From the NCBI GenBank assembly GCA_049700835.1, contig JBNAUL010000001.1:44491-64490 (forward strand): a stretch of 20,000 bases of DNA, given 5' to 3'. Positions 5,649 to 18,940 of this stretch are shown one piece after another. Below the pieces are notes generated by a model, which did not search any database, was not told the DNA's origin, and saw only the letters and a list, made by a program, of their open reading frames with translations. The stretch's first letter is position 1; every line of letters begins with the position of its first letter. Both the position numbers and the translations under genes were made by a program. This DNA comes from Candidatus Woesearchaeota archaeon. GTDB lineage: Archaea; Nanobdellota; Nanobdellia; Woesearchaeales; WAPY01.

Positions 5649-7190
5649 ATGCTTAGAAGAATGATTAAAAAGGCATTAAAAAATTATTGCAGAACATGGT
5701 TCAATAATCGCTTCAACAATTTGTTCTTGATTTCTATTTTTTATTTTGCAATATTGATCCTGCTAATACTCTTGGGAAAGAGGGTTTTCTGGCCTGACGA
5801 AGGAATTTACATTGCTCTTGGAAAGTACATCTTCTCAAAAGGCAATTCTGGTTTGTTTGAACCATTTAGGCCGTTTTTATTGCCATTGCTCTTAGGCCTT
5901 TTTTGGAGAGTCGGGATAAACCCTTTAATTTTTGGTTATGTTTTTGAATTTGTAAGTGGTCTGGCATGCGTAATCTTAACTTGGGAGATATCAGAAAAAC
6001 TCTTTGGAAAAAAATATGCACTAATCGCTTCGCTCTTCATAATAACAAACCTTCAATTCATAATAAATAGCACAAGAATAATTGCAGATGTTCCTGCTCT
6101 TGCATTTGCCATAACAAGCATTTACTTCTTTTTAAACAGAAAATACTTTCTTTCAGGCTTATTTTCAGGAATGAGTTTCATGACAAGATTTACATATGGA
6201 ATTCTGCCTGTAATGATGCTTGCTGTTTATTTTATAGAAAAAATGTATTGGAGTAAACTGAAAAACGAAAAAAGGAACAAAATTTATGTTAAGAAACTCT
6301 TTTTTGAAATAATAAGTTTCATAACAGGATTAATAATAACAACTGCGCCATACTTCATATACAGCAAGATTTCATATGGAAGTTTAACTTGGACTTTGAG
6401 GAGCGCGAATTGCATAGTAAAGAGTTATGCGTGGTTTGTTGAATACTCAGGATTTTTTACTTATCTAAAAAAACTCTTTATCAGCATGCCGTTAATAGTT
6501 CTATCCGTTTTAGGAATGTTGTGTTTTTTAATGGCTTTGCTCTCAAAGAAGGGCGTGCTTAAAAATTTTAAGGGCTCAGAGTTTACAGCATTTTCTTTGA
6601 GCGCACTCTGCTCGCTCTGCTTTTTGTTTTACATAATCTATTTTGGAATTTTTGTCAGGCAGGAAGCAAGATATGTTTTGCACACAATATTTTTCGCAGC
6701 CATGCTAATTGCTTTTGGAATGCGCTGTCTTGAGAAAAGATTAAATATATTGAATAAAAGTTTGTCAAAGATTTTCAACGCTGCTGTTGCAATTCTGATT
6801 TTGATTTCAGTTGCGTGGCAGTTAAATTACATAACAGACATTTACAAAGGAGAGTACTACTCAAAATCAGAAGGAGAACTTATAGAATTTCTTAGAAATA
6901 ACATAAGAAATGATGATTTTTTATTAACAACAACATTTGTTCCTGCAATCTATTTTGACAACAAGATGCTTGGATTTGCTTCTTACGACTATGCACTCGG
7001 AGTTCTTGAACAGAACAAGTTTAGGAAGGGATTGATAATTGTAAACACATGCGCTTATGGCTGTGGTATAAATGATTATGAGTGCCAACTTAAAAGAGCA
7101 GAATTTTTAAGAGTGTTGGAAAAAGAAAAACTGATTTTTGAAACTAAAATAAACAGCGAATGCAGTTACAGGGTCTATGACAACAGATGA
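5649..7190 (+). CDS. ArnT/PMT-like (GT39/GT83-type) GT-C membrane glycosyltransferase
   Basis: WPDEGIY in the first loop, RPFLLP motif, GLFSGMSFMTRF, multiple TM helices and the RQEARY late-loop motif. Confidence 0.8.
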   Translation: MLRRMIKKALKNYCRTWFNNRFNNLFLISIFYFAILILLILLGKRVFWPDEGIYIALGKYIFSKGNSGLFEPFRPFLLPLLLGLFWRVGINPLIFGYVFEFVSGLACVILTWEISEKLFGKKYALIASLFIITNLQFIINSTRIIADVPALAFAITSIYFFLNRKYFLSGLFSGMSFMTRFTYGILPVMMLAVYFIEKMYWSKLKNEKRNKIYVKKLFFEIISFITGLIITTAPYFIYSKISYGSLTWTLRSANCIVKSYAWFVEYSGFFTYLKKLFISMPLIVLSVLGMLCFLMALLSKKGVLKNFKGSEFTAFSLSALCSLCFLFYIIYFGIFVRQEARYVLHTIFFAAMLIAFGMRCLEKRLNILNKSLSKIFNAAVAILILISVAWQLNYITDIYKGEYYSKSEGELIEFLRNNIRNDDFLLTTTFVPAIYFDNKMLGFASYDYALGVLEQNKFRKGLIIVNTCAYGCGINDYECQLKRAEFLRVLEKEKLIFETKINSECSYRVYDNR

Positions 7191-8973: not shown

Positions 8974-9939
8974 ATGGAAAAAAAGAGGGACTTGATAAGA
9001 ATCAGAGAAATTAGTTTTAGATATGAGAAGTTATCTGTTCTGAAAGATTTAAACATAACAATCCAAGAGCAAGAAATCTTTGGAATAGTAGGAATGAGCG
9101 GAGTTGGCAAAACAACCCTGCTCAACATCATAATAGGGTTTTTAAAACCAGAGAGCGGAGAGATTGATTACAGAATAAACAGCAGGTTCATAAACATACA
9201 TGAAAACATAAAATTGATAAGGGACTGTTTTGGATTTTCTTCTCAAAAACCATCTTTCTACAACGAACTCACTGTAAAACAAAATCTTGAATACTTTGCT
9301 TCTTTGTACAACCTTAACAAAGAAACAAAAAAAGAAAACATTGAAAGGGCTCTTGAGCTCGTTGATTTAAAAGATTCCAAGAACAAGCTTGCAGGAGAAC
9401 TCTCAGGAGGAATGCAGAAGAGGCTTGACATTGCCTGTTCAATAATTCATAAACCAAGAGTTCTTATAATGGACGAGCCAACAGCAGATTTAGATGTTTT
9501 TAACAGAGAAAAGATTTGGAATCTGATAAGGAGAATAAACGAGGTTGGAACAACAATAATAATTGCATCCCATTTTTTGGAAGAACTTGAAATTATCTGT
9601 TCACGAATTGGAATACTGCATGAAAAGAGAATGCTCGCAGTTGGAAGCATAGAAGAACTAAAGAAGGTGTATTCAAGCGCAAAAACCATACACCTGAAAA
9701 CAAAAAACATGAGATACGATTTAATTCTTGAGAAACTTAGAAAGTTTTCCTTGTTTGAAATCAGGAGGATAGAATCTGAACCTGAAAAACTTGTAATCTC
9801 AACTGAAAATGTTGAAGAAACAATGAGGAACTTGATGACTGCAATAAGGGAGCTTGATGACAGGATTGTACATGTCAGCGTGCTTGAACCTCGTCTAGGG
9901 GACATCTTTGAGAGAATAATAACAAAAAATAAAACATAA
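8974..9939 (+). CDS. ABC-2 type exporter ATP-binding protein (DrrA-like)
   Basis: Walker A GMSGVGKTT, signature LSGGMQKR, Walker B LIMDEPT, H-loop ASH, and a C-terminal accessory domain. Confidence 0.95.
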   Translation: MEKKRDLIRIREISFRYEKLSVLKDLNITIQEQEIFGIVGMSGVGKTTLLNIIIGFLKPESGEIDYRINSRFINIHENIKLIRDCFGFSSQKPSFYNELTVKQNLEYFASLYNLNKETKKENIERALELVDLKDSKNKLAGELSGGMQKRLDIACSIIHKPRVLIMDEPTADLDVFNREKIWNLIRRINEVGTTIIIASHFLEELEIICSRIGILHEKRMLAVGSIEELKKVYSSAKTIHLKTKNMRYDLILEKLRKFSLFEIRRIESEPEKLVISTENVEETMRNLMTAIRELDDRIVHVSVLEPRLGDIFERIITKNKT

Positions 9940-11657: not shown

Positions 11658-12857
11658 AACATAATTAAAACAAAAAAAATTTTGGGTTAATTTTCTTAGT
11701 GGTTATAAAGCAAAAGTGTTAAGAAGCGTACATGTTAAGAACAGTTCTGCTAAAAATAAGAAACTCCAACAACAGTGATTTTACAACAAAATGAAAAAAT
11801 AAAAAACAACAAAGAAAACAACAAAGAGAAAAGATAATAATTATGATGTCAAAACAAGATGCTTGGATAGGCATAAGATTTAACGAAAATATTCAACAGA
11901 AACAGCAAAAGCAGTTCTTAAAGACCATATAATATAGAATAAGGATGAACGAGGATGAACGCACTTAAGAAAAATTCATTTATAAATTAAAATTTAGATT
12001 TATCAGCAAATGATTATAGAATTATGGGCACCATAATCTTTGGCGTTTTAAAAGTTTTTGGTTTATTTTTGCATAAAAATTCACTTTTTGAATATAAAAA
12101 CATATAAAAACTATTTTTATTAACTTTTTATTAAATATTTAAACAGCAAAATCAATAAAAATGTAATTTTTTGTTGATTTTTTGCGATTTTTGTTGCAAT
12201 TTTCGTGTTTTAAAGTAAACAAAGCAAATCTTATAGAAAACTCTCACTTTTTATGAATAAAAATCTTATTATTGTTGGCTAAACTTTATTAAAAATACGT
12301 ATTTTAAAAATTATCAAAAATATCATTAAAAATCTCTAAATCCCTGGTTTAAAACTCATAAAACAATAACAAAAAGTGAGAAAACTAAGATTATTGCATT
12401 CTGTTGAGATTCTTGTACTTAACAGGGACTTAACAAGGCTTAACAGAGTTTTAGAACAAAATTCTGTATAAAAAATCCAAAATGCAATTTTTAACATAAA
12501 ATTGTTTTGTGATATGTATTTTATTTAACAACAATTGTATTTATTATTTATTAATATATCTTTTAAAATTATTATTATAAAATATAATAGTTGCATTTGG
12601 TTGCTCTGATTTTAAGTAATTATTAAAAAGTAAATAAAATAAAATTGTTTGTTCAGTTTGTTTAATCAAGTTGCGCAAAGGTGTTTTTTTCAACAAATCT
12701 TTTTTAAAATTCTTTTTATATTTTGTTTTTTTCGCGCTTAAAATCATGTCCTGATGTGTCCTTGTCATGTCCCGATCATGTCCCGATCATGTCCTTTTTT
12801 CAGGACATGTCCTTAAAAAACAAAGGACAAAAACAGCAAAAGAAGAAATTTCTTTTT
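11658..12857. other. 1.2-kb non-coding AT-rich region between convergent genes, repeat-rich; candidate replication origin or centromere-like locus
   Basis: No credible ORF in an otherwise gene-dense window. 12481-12660 has 27 G+C in 180 bp (15%). Contains several repeat families (see findings). The function is inferred. Confidence 0.5.
12743..12829 (+). repeat. Helically phased direct-repeat array (consensus ATCATGTCCyg) x5, plus palindrome AGGACATGTCCT and a further inverted GGACA
   Basis: TGTCC cores at 12747, 12757, 12768, 12779 and 12790 (spacing 10, 11, 11, 11). Perfect 12-bp palindrome at 12802-12813. GGACA at 12803 and 12825, 22 bp apart. Confidence 0.95.
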
Positions 12858-13619
12858 TTATCTTCCTGAAATCTTTAATTTCATTTCTTCTGTAAGATAA
12901 AATGCCTTTTCTTTTGAAGAAACAAGTTTGTCATTTATACCAAAACCCTTCTTCCTAAGTTCGTAAATTGAATTCCTTATTGTTTTTTCTTCTCTGCCCA
13001 ACATCCTCGACAAATCCGCATATGTCAATGGAGAATCTGATTCATATAAAATTTTTAGCAAGCTCTTTTCTGTTACTGAAAGTTCATTTTCATCGCGAAA
13101 TTCTGCAATTCTTTTTTTAACAACAAAATTCTTTGATTTTTTGAGTTCCCTATCAAAAAATTCTTTTTCAAACAAGAAAACCCTGTCTTTTCTCACGTCC
13201 TGATATGTCCCAATCATGTCCCGATCATGTCCCGACATGTCCTTATCATGTCCTGACGCGTCCTTTTTTTTGGAAAGCTCTGATTTTATTGCTTCAAACA
13301 ACTCTCTTATGTCATTGTGAACTTTTTTGATTTCAGCTATTTCATATTCCAAGCCCCTTTTCTCTTCAGATATTTTTAATGATGAAACATTGCTTTCAAG
13401 AAGAGCTGTCTTTTTCTCAATTTCATTCAACCTTGAAACAAGAGAATCTAGTCTTTTGTTCTGCTCATCAACCAAAACCCTTATTTCGGCATGTTCTGAT
13501 TCGTTCTTTAGAATCTTTGCATTAAAGAAATCTATCCAAAGTTTTACATTAAAAAACTCTGCCTTTATTTTTAAAAATGCTGCTTTTAGGGCTTGATTTA
13601 TGTTTTCTAAGCTTGGCAT
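12858..13619 (-). CDS. Uncharacterised protein: N-terminal coiled coil, repeat-encoded linker, C-terminal winged-HTH DNA-binding domain
   Basis: C-terminus LSVTEKSLLKILYESDSPLTYADLSRMLGREEKTIRNSIYELRKKGFGI reads as an HTH_11/MarR-like wHTH. The N-terminal half has heptad character. Start moved from 13670 to ATG 13619, with a TTTTAAAT TATA-like box about 25 bp upstream. Confidence 0.8.
   Translation of the reverse strand: MPSLENINQALKAAFLKIKAEFFNVKLWIDFFNAKILKNESEHAEIRVLVDEQNKRLDSLVSRLNEIEKKTALLESNVSSLKISEEKRGLEYEIAEIKKVHNDIRELFEAIKSELSKKKDASGHDKDMSGHDRDMIGTYQDVRKDRVFLFEKEFFDRELKKSKNFVVKKRIAEFRDENELSVTEKSLLKILYESDSPLTYADLSRMLGREEKTIRNSIYELRKKGFGINDKLVSSKEKAFYLTEEMKLKISGR
13192..13265 (+). repeat. 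Intragenic helically phased repeat array (same ATCATGTCC unit) x7
   Basis: YGTCC cores at 13196, 13206, 13217, 13228, 13238, 13249 and 13259. Spacings 10, 11, 11, 10, 11, 10 give 63 bp over 6 steps, or 10.5 bp. On the minus strand it encodes DASGHDK-DMSGHDR-DMIGTYQ-DV. Confidence 0.95.
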
Positions 13620-13638
13620 AATCAAAAAATAAACGCTT

Positions 13639-13650
13639 AGATTTAAAATC
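13639..13650 (-). promoter_or_regulatory. Putative TATA box of the wHTH gene (leaderless transcript)
   Basis: The minus strand reads AAAAGATTTTAAATCT, centred about 25 bp before ATG 13619, with a purine-rich BRE-like stretch 5' of it. Confidence 0.45.
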
Positions 13651-13940
13651 TTTTTGTTTTTTAAAATCATTTTTGGGCACCATAAATTTATTGATTTTGC
13701 AGTTTGTTTATGAAAAGTGAGAGTTGGCTATTATGTTTTTTGGATTTATAATAAAAGTTTACTGAATATACTGCTGAATATACTAATAAACAATAAAAAT
13801 AATAATGCAAAATACATTTTTGAAAACATATCTTATTTTACATTTTTGGTTTATTTTTTATTTTTGTCAAAAAACCGTTTAAATATGGTTTAAATATGGT
13901 TTTAATAAGCTTTATAAATAAAGAAATAATAGATTTTTTT

Positions 13941-17610: not shown

Positions 17611-18726
17611 TTACAAATCTTTGATTTTGTCAAGATCAAAGTAGGTATAAAATAAGAAAACGCGCTCAAATGTCAGCACTGCTGACTCTGCTAAAAATAA
17701 AAATAATAATAATCCAACACTAAGTATTTGAATGGCTAAATTGTTTGTAATGTATAAGTTTAAATAAACTTGTAAAGAAGGGGATGATAAGTAATTCCTT
17801 AATATTGAAAATATAATCAAAATTATAAAAATAACAAAAACCTGTCCTAAGTGGTGCCTTGTTAATTTAAAACTGTGCTCTATCGACTTCAAAGGTCCTT
17901 CTTTTTCAAGAAACATGATTGGAATAACATAAAGAACCCTTAAAATTATAATAAAAATGAATATTAGAAATACAACATATATTAAAGGAACCAGCAAAAA
18001 TCCTAGAACAGAAGAAAAGGTTAAGAAAAAGACACTAATACCTACGCCAACAGATATTATAGTTGTTATTATTAAAAAAACTAATAATTCAACACCTGCT
18101 AACTTTAATAAAAACTTATTTGTAAAATTCAAAACATTATTTAAAGAAAATTTCTCATTTTTGATTGCCAAAGCAATCATTGCATAAGACATGCATGAAA
18201 AATAGAAAGAAAAGAGAGAAATTGCTAATGCAAAAATTACTATCATAATTAAATTTTTAGTGCTAAAAAAGTTTTTATAAGATAGTTTTTAAGTTATTTA
18301 CCTTATCATTTATTTTTTGATCTGCTAGCAATTCCTTCTTTACTTGTTCATCAAGTTCAACACTATATTGCATAAGCGTAAATGTACTATTGTAATATTC
18401 TTCTTCTAGTTTAAGTAATTCTTGAAATTCATCAAATGTCTTTTCCTTTTTTTTCTCTTAATTGGTTTATTTTATCTTCCAACTCGCCCATTCTTTGTAT
18501 TTCTCTCATTAATTCTTCTGACTGTTCAGAATAAATTTTATCCTTTCTAATCTGCATTTCACTGCTTACATTAATTGTATCTTTAATCACTCCTCCTAAA
18601 CCAGATACTCTCAAAAACAAAAAACCTGCTAACAAAATAACAACAAGCGAAAGAAAGGAAGGAATATTATTATCTTGTTATGTTTTAATAAATCAAAATC
18701 TCCTTAAAGTCATTTTCTACTTTCAT
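17611..18726 (-). pseudogene. Frameshifted polytopic membrane protein gene (about 370 codons originally); ORFs 18432-18635 and 17611-18246 are fragments
   Basis: Stitching frames gives MKVENDFKE/FDLLKHNKII/IPSFLSLVVILLAGFLFL...LREKK/EKTFDEFQELLKLEEEYY...KVNNL/KLSYKNFFSTKNLIMIVIF... with four frameshifts. A TTTATATA box lies about 25-30 bp upstream of ATG 18726. Confidence 0.75.
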
Positions 18727-18940
18727 TTAGTTTTTTATTTAAAAGAACTTATATATAAATTTTTGCAAAAAAAAACAAAAAAATTTAAATAAGCAAAAAA
18801 TAAAATGCGTTAAGGTGTGATAAAGTAATACAAAATAAGATAACAAGAAAAATAAGATAGCAAGATTGATTATAAAGATCGATTGTATTAAGATTACTAA
18901 TTAAAAACAAAACAGATGCTAAAAAATTCAAGGTGACAAA

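Follow-up and report, generated by a model that had tools for sequence, protein, structure and literature searches.

Phased GGACA arrays within and behind a Nanobdellota winged-helix gene as candidate binding sites of its own product

A stretch of 20,000 nucleotides (nt) from Candidatus Woesearchaeota archaeon (assembly GCA_049700835.1, contig JBNAUL010000001.1, positions 44,491 to 64,490 of the forward strand; hereafter the window) was analysed, in which a gene for a predicted winged helix-turn-helix (wHTH) protein is accompanied by two arrays of a short repeat, one within the gene and the other behind its stop codon. An earlier reading of the sequence (the original prediction) had presented this region as a candidate replication origin independent of Orc1/Cdc6, or as a centromere. 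The gene and its arrays are located as follows, in window coordinates:

12858-13619, minus strand: wHTH family gene, an open reading frame (ORF) with a translation of 253 amino acids (aa)
13194-13263, minus strand: in-gene array of seven units, 10-11 base pairs (bp) apart, five of them strict GGACA and two GGACG on the coding strand
12743-12829, minus strand: downstream composite element, beginning about 30 bp past the stop codon

The seven in-gene units that had been claimed were all recovered, with strict TGTCC on the plus strand at 13206, 13217, 13228, 13238 and 13249 and two CGTCC variants completing the set. The five downstream copies and the palindrome past the stop codon were likewise found, together with one inverted copy (12825-12829) that the original prediction had not listed. 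Read along the gene strand, the downstream element is composed of this inverted TGTCC, the palindrome GGACATGTCC (12803-12812) and five direct GGACA (12747-12794) spaced 10-11 bp, with the direct units and the palindrome lying 46-115 bp beyond the stop. Tandem Repeats Finder gave a period of 11 in both arrays. Moreover, where 0.81 matches of the word CATGTCC would be expected in the window, 10 were found, a number reached in none of 200 shuffles, and all ten matches were confined to the two arrays. The extended unit of 11 bp has the consensus m-R-GGACA-W-G-T-C, identical in the coding and the non-coding array, and each 11-bp unit is a degenerate copy of the 10-bp palindrome GGACATGTCC, a sequence that the literature searches returned mainly as a p53 half-site. 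The two arrays flank the third of the gene coding for the winged helix and are 350-460 bp apart.

For the gene itself, an alternative in-frame start at 13670 would yield a protein of 270 aa, but relatives begin with MPSLE or MLNIE. The 253-aa protein was matched in Pfam by HTH_11, HTH_Mga and HTH_24 only, all of them within the last 75 residues. The C-terminal winged helix reached HTH_11 with an E-value of 3.2e-6 (27.4 bits vs. a cut-off of 25), the sole curated family reached. An AlphaFold2 (AF2) model, built on a 55-sequence alignment, had a mean predicted local distance difference test score (pLDDT) of 84.4 and showed the following parts:

residues 4-121: N-terminal helical hairpin or coiled coil, with long helices at 4-81 and 85-121
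residues 122-142: linker predicted to be disordered, with pLDDT below 50 at 123-140
residues 143-166: helix between the linker and the winged helix
residues 178-253: C-terminal winged helix, with three helices and a beta wing at 182-242
residues 211-223: recognition helix, the third helix of the winged helix, EKTIRNSIYELRK

The description of a coiled-coil and wHTH gene carrying seven units was thus borne out by the ORF, the Pfam matches, the AF2 model and the unit positions. The placement of the in-gene array in an interdomain region was borne out as well, as it encodes residues ~119-142 (DASGHDKDMSGHDRDMIGTYQDV), which correspond to the linker predicted to be disordered. A winged-helix fold was found by Foldseek, whose PDB matches were of the MarR/ArsR/Lrs14 type (probability 1.00, E-values from 2e-4 to 1e-3, the best being 2.3e-4), and AbfR2 (6cmv) superposed at a root-mean-square deviation of 2.8 Å over 80 columns. 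A comparison with Rep, Orc1-WH, DnaD and TubR had been proposed in the original prediction; the search gave MarR/ArsR/Lrs14 regulators instead, and no Rep, Orc1-WH, TubR, DnaD or ParR fold was among the PDB matches listed. In NCBIfam, Lrs14 (17.6 bits, cut-off of 90) and Sta1 (17.3 bits, cut-off of 80) remained below threshold. Among 55 scanned family members, Pfam MarR was matched by six at E ≤ 0.1, no Rep family appeared among the 25 most frequent Pfam families, and the window protein had no AAA+, ATPase, helicase, helicase-loading or Rep_3 domain in Pfam. Furthermore, PHROGs gave zero family matches for the window protein and weak wHTH matches alone for its relatives, a family-profile search of PDB sequences returned generic coiled-coil and HTH matches only, and the closest clusters in the ESM Atlas were unnamed Nanobdellota proteins. 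A homodimer prediction with two copies and the family alignment scored 0.12, which speaks neither for nor against a dimer. The family search yielded 334 cluster representatives with an E-value threshold of 1e-3 and 138 with one of 1e-10, and all its labelled members came from Nanobdellota/Woesearchaeota. As modelled, the protein is a Nanobdellota-specific predicted DNA-binding protein that falls into the broad structural class of MarR/ArsR/Lrs14 proteins. Neither the family nor GGACA arrays in archaea were described in the literature that the searches turned up.

The arrangement was then compared with that of 12 related loci (L001-L012) from metagenome-assembled genomes of Woesearchaeota, Nanoarchaeia and Nanobdellota, giving a total of 13 loci with the window. 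The proteins of these 12 loci were 28-64% identical to the window protein, and the GC content of the loci ranged from 0.26 to 0.54. An in-gene array of 5-8 GGACA units, 10-12 bp apart, was present in all 11 genes whose linker lay on the contig (10 loci and the window). Right after the stop codon, a downstream element was found in all 13 loci, in the order TGTCC, 4-17 nt, GGACATGTCC (often with another TGTCC directly after it) and 3-8 direct GGACA. In-gene spacings of 10, 11 and 12 bp were counted 13, 26 and 7 times, respectively (mean of 10.87 bp), and downstream spacings of 9, 10, 11 and 12 bp were counted 1, 15, 22 and 2 times (mean of 10.62 bp). These means and the period of 11 agree with the claim that both arrays repeat once per helical turn. 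The density of GGACA/TGTCC in the 13 loci was 13.7-22.9 per kilobase (kb) in the gene and the 130 bp that follow it, compared to 0.3-3.0 per kb elsewhere in the locus. Outside the modules, four copies of GGACATGTCC were found in ~107 kb (L003 at 5889, L005 at 1464, L006 at 4733 and L007 at 1700), that of L006 lying just upstream of the family gene. As only ~0.1 would be estimated by chance, the protein probably has some other targets. In a further family member, P0063, the frame continues beyond the winged helix into ...KKDMSLQVEGQVRDN, which resembles a translated downstream array after loss of the stop codon.

Within the genes, GGACA fell in reading frames 0, 1 and 2 in 24, 21 and 25 cases, respectively (n = 70). 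Since the in-gene units occupy all three frames, the word is conserved as DNA and not as peptide. The odd peptides of the linkers result from GGACA being read in frame 0 (GHD, GHV, GQV), frame 1 (RT, GT, RTCP) or frame 2 (KDMS, KDIS), and the overprinted word is likewise the reason why peptide motifs such as GHD, KDMS, GQVR, RTSQ and RTCP occur in hundreds of database proteins. Moreover, a period of 11 bp is incompatible with an origin as a peptide repeat. The sequence comparison supports the repeats being a functional, selected DNA feature tied to the gene.

Two ways of explaining the arrays without the gene's own product were considered, namely that they are read by a different protein (e.g. 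a neighbouring ArsR/HTH_20 regulator) or that they are a neutral by-product of slippage and gene conversion involving the linker and a 3′ copy. HTH_20 genes do recur near the module, and the number of downstream units differs in close relatives (5 in the window, 8 in L001). Furthermore, the in-gene and downstream arrays of a given locus are alike: the five spacer bases after each core had a similarity of 0.495 within loci vs. 0.408 between loci, with none of 5000 permutations as high, and the order of the units agreed between the two arrays in L012 and L008. However, the core word and its phasing have been kept over the whole range of protein identity and a two-fold range of GC content, which argues for selection, the word is specifically tied to the recognition-helix class of the gene's own product (see below), and the HTH_20 neighbours are found at no constant position. 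Explanations of this kind were judged quite improbable.

The tie between the word and the recognition helix was evaluated in 149 representatives of at least 150 aa, unselected for the helix, by the compatibility of their peptides with at least four GGACA words 10-12 nt apart. Such a chain was compatible with 29 of the 33 proteins of helix class [IV]RNxI[YHC], and with none of those in classes TVKNxI (0/28), NTVR (0/28) and other T-x-R/K (0/34). Among the unclassified helices it was found in 4 of 26 proteins, three of which carry the near-identical SIRNL[VM]YELR. In shuffled proteins the mean GGACA chain was 1.1 and the maximum 3. When all 1024 five-mers were ranked, GGACA came first for the [IV]RNxI[YHC] class (29/33), the next words all overlapping it, and no word exceeded three proteins in the other named classes or two in the shuffles. 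The expectation that the repeats covary with the recognition helix therefore held in part: GGACA goes with one helix class, but the agreement is coarse only, the other classes being without GGACA. Some members with other recognition helices (P0036, P0050, P0054, P0066, P0026, P0030 and P0051) have repeats of their own in the linker, e.g. SVTKSVTKSVT, SDTASDTRSDT or RHSDVTQSD, and the linkers of other-helix members would fit a different phased word, perhaps GTGAC/GTCAC.

The downstream element was also considered at the RNA level, where a nested hairpin of UGUCC and GGACA might terminate or stabilise the transcript, or bind the protein for translational feedback. Eight downstream elements folded better than their shuffles (z from -2.05 to -5.23, 0-5 of 200 shuffles doing equally well), and three UGUCC pair with three GGACA in L005, L008 and L012. 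However, inverted copies of an invariant word give such z-scores anyway, with no covariation testable, and the in-gene arrays are almost devoid of complementary TGTCC partners. In addition, a period of 10.6-10.9 bp is characteristic of double-stranded DNA, the fold is that of regulators binding double-stranded DNA, and no Rfam match was obtained. A role as an RNA element was accordingly rated as very unlikely.

Beyond the downstream element lies a region that had been given a part in the proposed origin:

11658-12742, no strand: non-coding AT-rich stretch of 1.1 kb, which includes the 52-bp tract 12538-12589

The non-coding region of 1.2 kb that had been claimed, between 11658 and 12857, is the longest gap of the window, with no ORF of more than 74 aa, no Rfam match at E ≤ 1 and no transfer RNA; the sole Rfam match of the window was IS009 at 9536-9694 (E-value of 0.13). 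The 52-bp tract does hold exactly one G/C, is the only such 52-mer in the window and lies 150-200 bp beyond the downstream array. Counted from the stop codon, the next ORF of 80 aa or more was 1200 bp away in the window and 1114 bp away in L001, compared to 66-692 bp in the other 11 loci (e.g. L008 with 66 bp and L012 with 79 bp), where it often follows the array directly, and the array reaches or enters the 3′ end of the convergent gene in L005, L008 and L012. When the gaps of the window and L001 were aligned, the array block (12736-12831) was the best conserved, with 80.6% over 108 columns. The only other conserved block was 12239-12270 of the window (6158-6189 of L001), with 90.6% over 32 nt, which contains CTCACTTT. 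Thus, of the proposal that homologues carry repeats both in the linker and in an adjacent long intergenic gap, the first part stood (11/11 in-gene and 13/13 downstream arrays) and the second did not, as gaps of more than 1 kb were restricted to the window and L001. The 1.1-kb stretch is filler specific to the lineage, opposite to what had been supposed, and no conserved part of the module; it occupies the place that the convergent small kinase gene has in most relatives (see below).

These results bear directly on the reading of the locus as an Orc1/Cdc6-independent or secondary replication origin, in which the arrays would be iterons and the protein would melt the adjacent AT-rich DNA. That reading draws on the in-gene repeats in the DNA of an interdomain linker, as in lambda O, on the one-G/C tract near the downstream array of the window, and on an array directly 3′ of the gene, as in some cis-acting plasmid initiators. 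On the other hand, the long AT-rich gap is found in 2 of 13 loci, the array elsewhere abutting or overlapping the 3′ end of a convergent gene, and the gap is unconserved except for the 32-nt block. The skew check that had been suggested, which with flanks of ~5 kb has low power, showed no consistent switch in the sign of the GC skew or in the coding strand across the 13 loci. Moreover, the protein lacks an AAA+, helicase or Rep_3 domain in Pfam and has a MarR/Lrs14-like fold, no relatives on plasmids or phages were found, and no AAA+/Orc1 domain was detected in the 18 ORFs of the window or in 34 neighbouring ORFs of the loci. According to the accessible part of a recent preprint, ORC1/Cdc6 is present in 206 of 208 complete Nanobdellota genomes and belongs to their single-copy core (bioRxiv 10.64898/2026.05.13.725050). 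With ORC1/Cdc6 near-universal in Nanobdellota, nothing at this locus calls for an Orc1-independent origin, and the origin proposed in the original prediction was considered highly improbable.

The surroundings of the module were characterised in the same loci. Conserved synteny was found with RqcH/NFACT, a small kinase and an ABC transporter, each locus having one copy of the family gene at a conserved chromosomal position. A convergent gene for a small P-loop kinase (Pfam AAA_18; best NCBIfam model PRK03839, under its cut-off) follows the family gene in 10 of the 12 related loci (L002-L010 and L012). It is absent downstream in the window and in L001, and no copy was found elsewhere in the window. 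The gap as a decayed kinase gene was not supported, as tblastn with 10 kinase proteins gave no match at E ≤ 1 in the gaps of the window and L001, nor any at E ≤ 0.01 in the whole of either sequence. A decayed tandem paralogue as the source of the array was rejected, since tblastn with seven family proteins against 11658-12857 returned only the array at E < 0.05. No tblastn matches to plasmid or phage relatives were obtained and, as had been stated, the 18 window ORFs scanned contained no orc1/cdc6, parA, integrase or transposase domain. The conserved synteny and the lack of plasmid or phage matches support, at the level of sequence, a module that is resident and chromosomal, in line with the original prediction. 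Four of the loci (L002, L004, L008 and L009) are labelled 'uncultured Methanosarcinales archaeon', a label that may not reflect the organism; their gene order (RqcH/NFACT or an HTH_20-S-layer gene, the family gene and the small kinase) is that of Woesearchaeota/Nanobdellota contigs.

A chromosomal locus of this kind could also act as a centromere-like or chromosome-organising landmark, its phased arrays nucleating a complex of the coiled-coil wHTH protein for segregation or compaction, and this was taken as the main rival reading. As in parC and tubC, direct repeats of 10-12 bp form two clusters, here of 5-8 units each, the arrays are nearly restricted to this locus, with a few isolated palindromes elsewhere, and site and binder are closely linked in the manner of partition modules; the single gene copy per locus and its conserved chromosomal position would also suit such a role. 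In contrast, neither the window nor the 34 neighbouring ORFs that were scanned yielded a motor of the ParA, ParM or TubZ type, the convergent P-loop gene resembles a small putative kinase (below the cut-off) and is missing in the window and L001, and TubR and ParR were not among the fold matches. A landmark was rated as the less likely role, with a minor share of the probability. The same holds for its extended form, an unlikely but not negligible one, a phylum-wide landmark in which the coiled-coil wHTH protein would polymerise on the arrays in and behind its own gene and use this single locus like a centromere, or as a licensing site, to segregate or compact the chromosome or to control its replication.

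The upstream, promoter-side region was inspected for further copies of the word:

13620-13730, minus strand: upstream region, with CTCACTTT at 13714-13721 and ATGGTGCC at 13676-13683

No GGACA site was present in 13620-13730, and a promoter-side site was seen in L006 alone of the 13 loci. The palindrome GGACATGTCC sits after the stop codon and is found upstream of the gene in L006 only. Therefore, feedback on the gene, if any, would act via the elongating polymerase or a loop.

Taken as a whole, the module is best read as self-binding, with a cis-acting site and a trans-acting factor combined and sites within the gene, and as either autoregulatory or a chromosomal landmark. That the gene's own product has its cognate sites in the arrays was considered probable from the sequence evidence. 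The whole statement, from a DNA-binding protein whose target word is written in and behind its own gene to the mode of binding and the feedback set out below, was rated more cautiously, at a little short of an even chance, and autoregulation as the main role of the module, although plausible, fell below that. On this view, the winged helix would read GGACA through its third helix (EK[ST]IRNxIYELR), and protomers, with the palindromic core as nucleus, would line up in a row along one face of the DNA. Neighbouring protomers would be joined by the N-terminal coiled coil, which could also bridge both arrays, the outcome being a compact nucleoprotein complex across the 3′ half of the gene. Such a complex would most plausibly feed back on the expression of its own gene by blocking RNA polymerase or looping against it. 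In addition, the 3′ array may insulate the gene from its convergent neighbour, the complex would create one very strong binding locus on the chromosome, and the isolated palindromes elsewhere would be secondary targets.

Several points weigh against the assignment of the arrays to the gene's own product and against its autoregulatory role. The related loci were retrieved by the peptide pattern EK[ST]IRNxIY, so their recognition helix is common by construction and the common word is no independent test. Base composition may be a partial cause of the spacer similarity within loci. The helix-class test scores the back-translation compatibility of proteins and not DNA, and as the helix classes are clades, the association may partly reflect common descent. 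Repression at the promoter is unsupported, with a promoter site in L006 only, and a roadblock or looping is conjecture. Furthermore, the downstream element folds well as RNA (z from -2.05 to -5.23), and another protein could read the arrays.

Comparisons with known systems show features in common with several of them, but by its domains, fold and accessory features the module belongs neither with lambda O/ori-lambda nor with ParR-parC or TubR-tubC. The lambda O protein has repeated binding sites inside its own gene, in the DNA coding for a flexible interdomain linker, and lambda O/ori-lambda shares with the present locus in-gene binding sites in linker-coding DNA and a site inseparable from its binder. 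It differs in that here a single C-terminal winged helix is joined to a coiled coil, with no match to an initiator in sequence or fold, the gene is followed by a second array, conservation does not extend to an AT-rich unwinding region and the context is chromosomal, with no relatives found on phages or plasmids. In ParR-parC (R1) and TubR-tubC (pBtoxis), clusters of 10-12-bp direct repeats lie by the gene of the binder, which oligomerises on them, ParR being a ribbon-helix-helix protein. Two phased clusters of about five or more such repeats adjoining the binder gene are shared with the present module, whereas here there is no motor gene, the arrays lie in and after the gene rather than at the promoter and the fold is another one. 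For ParB/Spo0J, a parS lies inside its own gene. Proteins of the MarR/ArsR/Lrs14 type such as AbfR2 superpose on the C-terminal domain, but the present protein has in addition an N-terminal hairpin of 120 residues and a disordered linker, and its candidate targets are phased multi-copy arrays and not a single promoter palindrome. Finally, BldC of Streptomyces is described, in the accessible part of the paper, as a small protein that binds direct repeats as cooperative multimers (PMC5859096), a functional analogue of the binding mode proposed here; it has a MerR-like fold without a coiled coil, and self-encoded arrays are not described for it in that part.

To our knowledge, DPANN archaea are highly reduced and have not been cultivated, next to nothing is known of the biology of their chromosomes and no segregation machinery has been defined for Nanobdellota. 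The module, defined by sequence alone, gives a directly testable protein-DNA pair, with one uncharacterised family, a probable 5-bp word and two arrays in fixed places. It is also a clean natural case of a DNA signal overprinted on coding sequence, running through all three frames of a disordered linker. Should the complex serve to mark the chromosome for segregation or for the control of replication, it would close a gap in the cell biology of archaea, and if the module is a landmark, it would be an archaeal counterpart of parS in parB made from unrelated parts. If it is autoregulatory, it would be an unusual device with sites in the gene body and at its 3′ end, not at the promoter.

A pair of words was found to be conserved ahead of the family gene and may represent a shared promoter or regulator site. 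In L001-L003, as in the window, the CTCACTTT/ATGGTGCC pair precedes the family gene, and in L002, L003, L005 and L010 it stands where the kinase gene begins. In extended form it reads aaCTCTCACTTTt, followed 5-30 nt later by ATGGTGCCCAa, and ATGGTGCC sometimes includes the start codon itself (MVP...). Further copies of the words occur in the gap of the window at 12243-12250 (plus strand), 12373-12380 (minus strand) and 12027-12034 (minus strand), and CTCACTTT is far over-represented near these loci, e.g. with 11 copies in 7.6 kb of L004. A 12-nt direct repeat with a copy on either side of the gene (12025/13674) was rejected as a pair of att sites, being part of the start-region motif that is also found at a neighbouring gene elsewhere. 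A scan with consensus sequences of bacterial type, of little use here, gave no terminator-like sites and 20 promoter-like sites, a number that did not exceed that of shuffles (15.0, standard deviation of 3.7).

Other repeats were noted in and around the gap. An exact 16-nt direct repeat, AACAAGATGCTTGGAT, occurs at 6960-6975, near the 3′ end of a gene for a PMT_2-like membrane protein, and in the gap at 11853-11868, within an ORF of 29 codons (11843-11932). Small tandem repeats, perfect or nearly so, were found in non-coding DNA at 11942-11961 (AGGATGAACG, two copies), 12417-12446 (ACTTAACAGGG, 2.8 copies) and 13877-13907 (GTTTAAATATG, 2.8 copies), the last of which overlaps with the RqcH/NFACT gene, whose start is at 13896. 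Finally, next in length to the 1.2-kb gap among the regions of the window that lack a convincing ORF is 18247-18940 (~0.7 kb), with a low GC content (0.245) and a strongly negative GC skew at 18401-18800.

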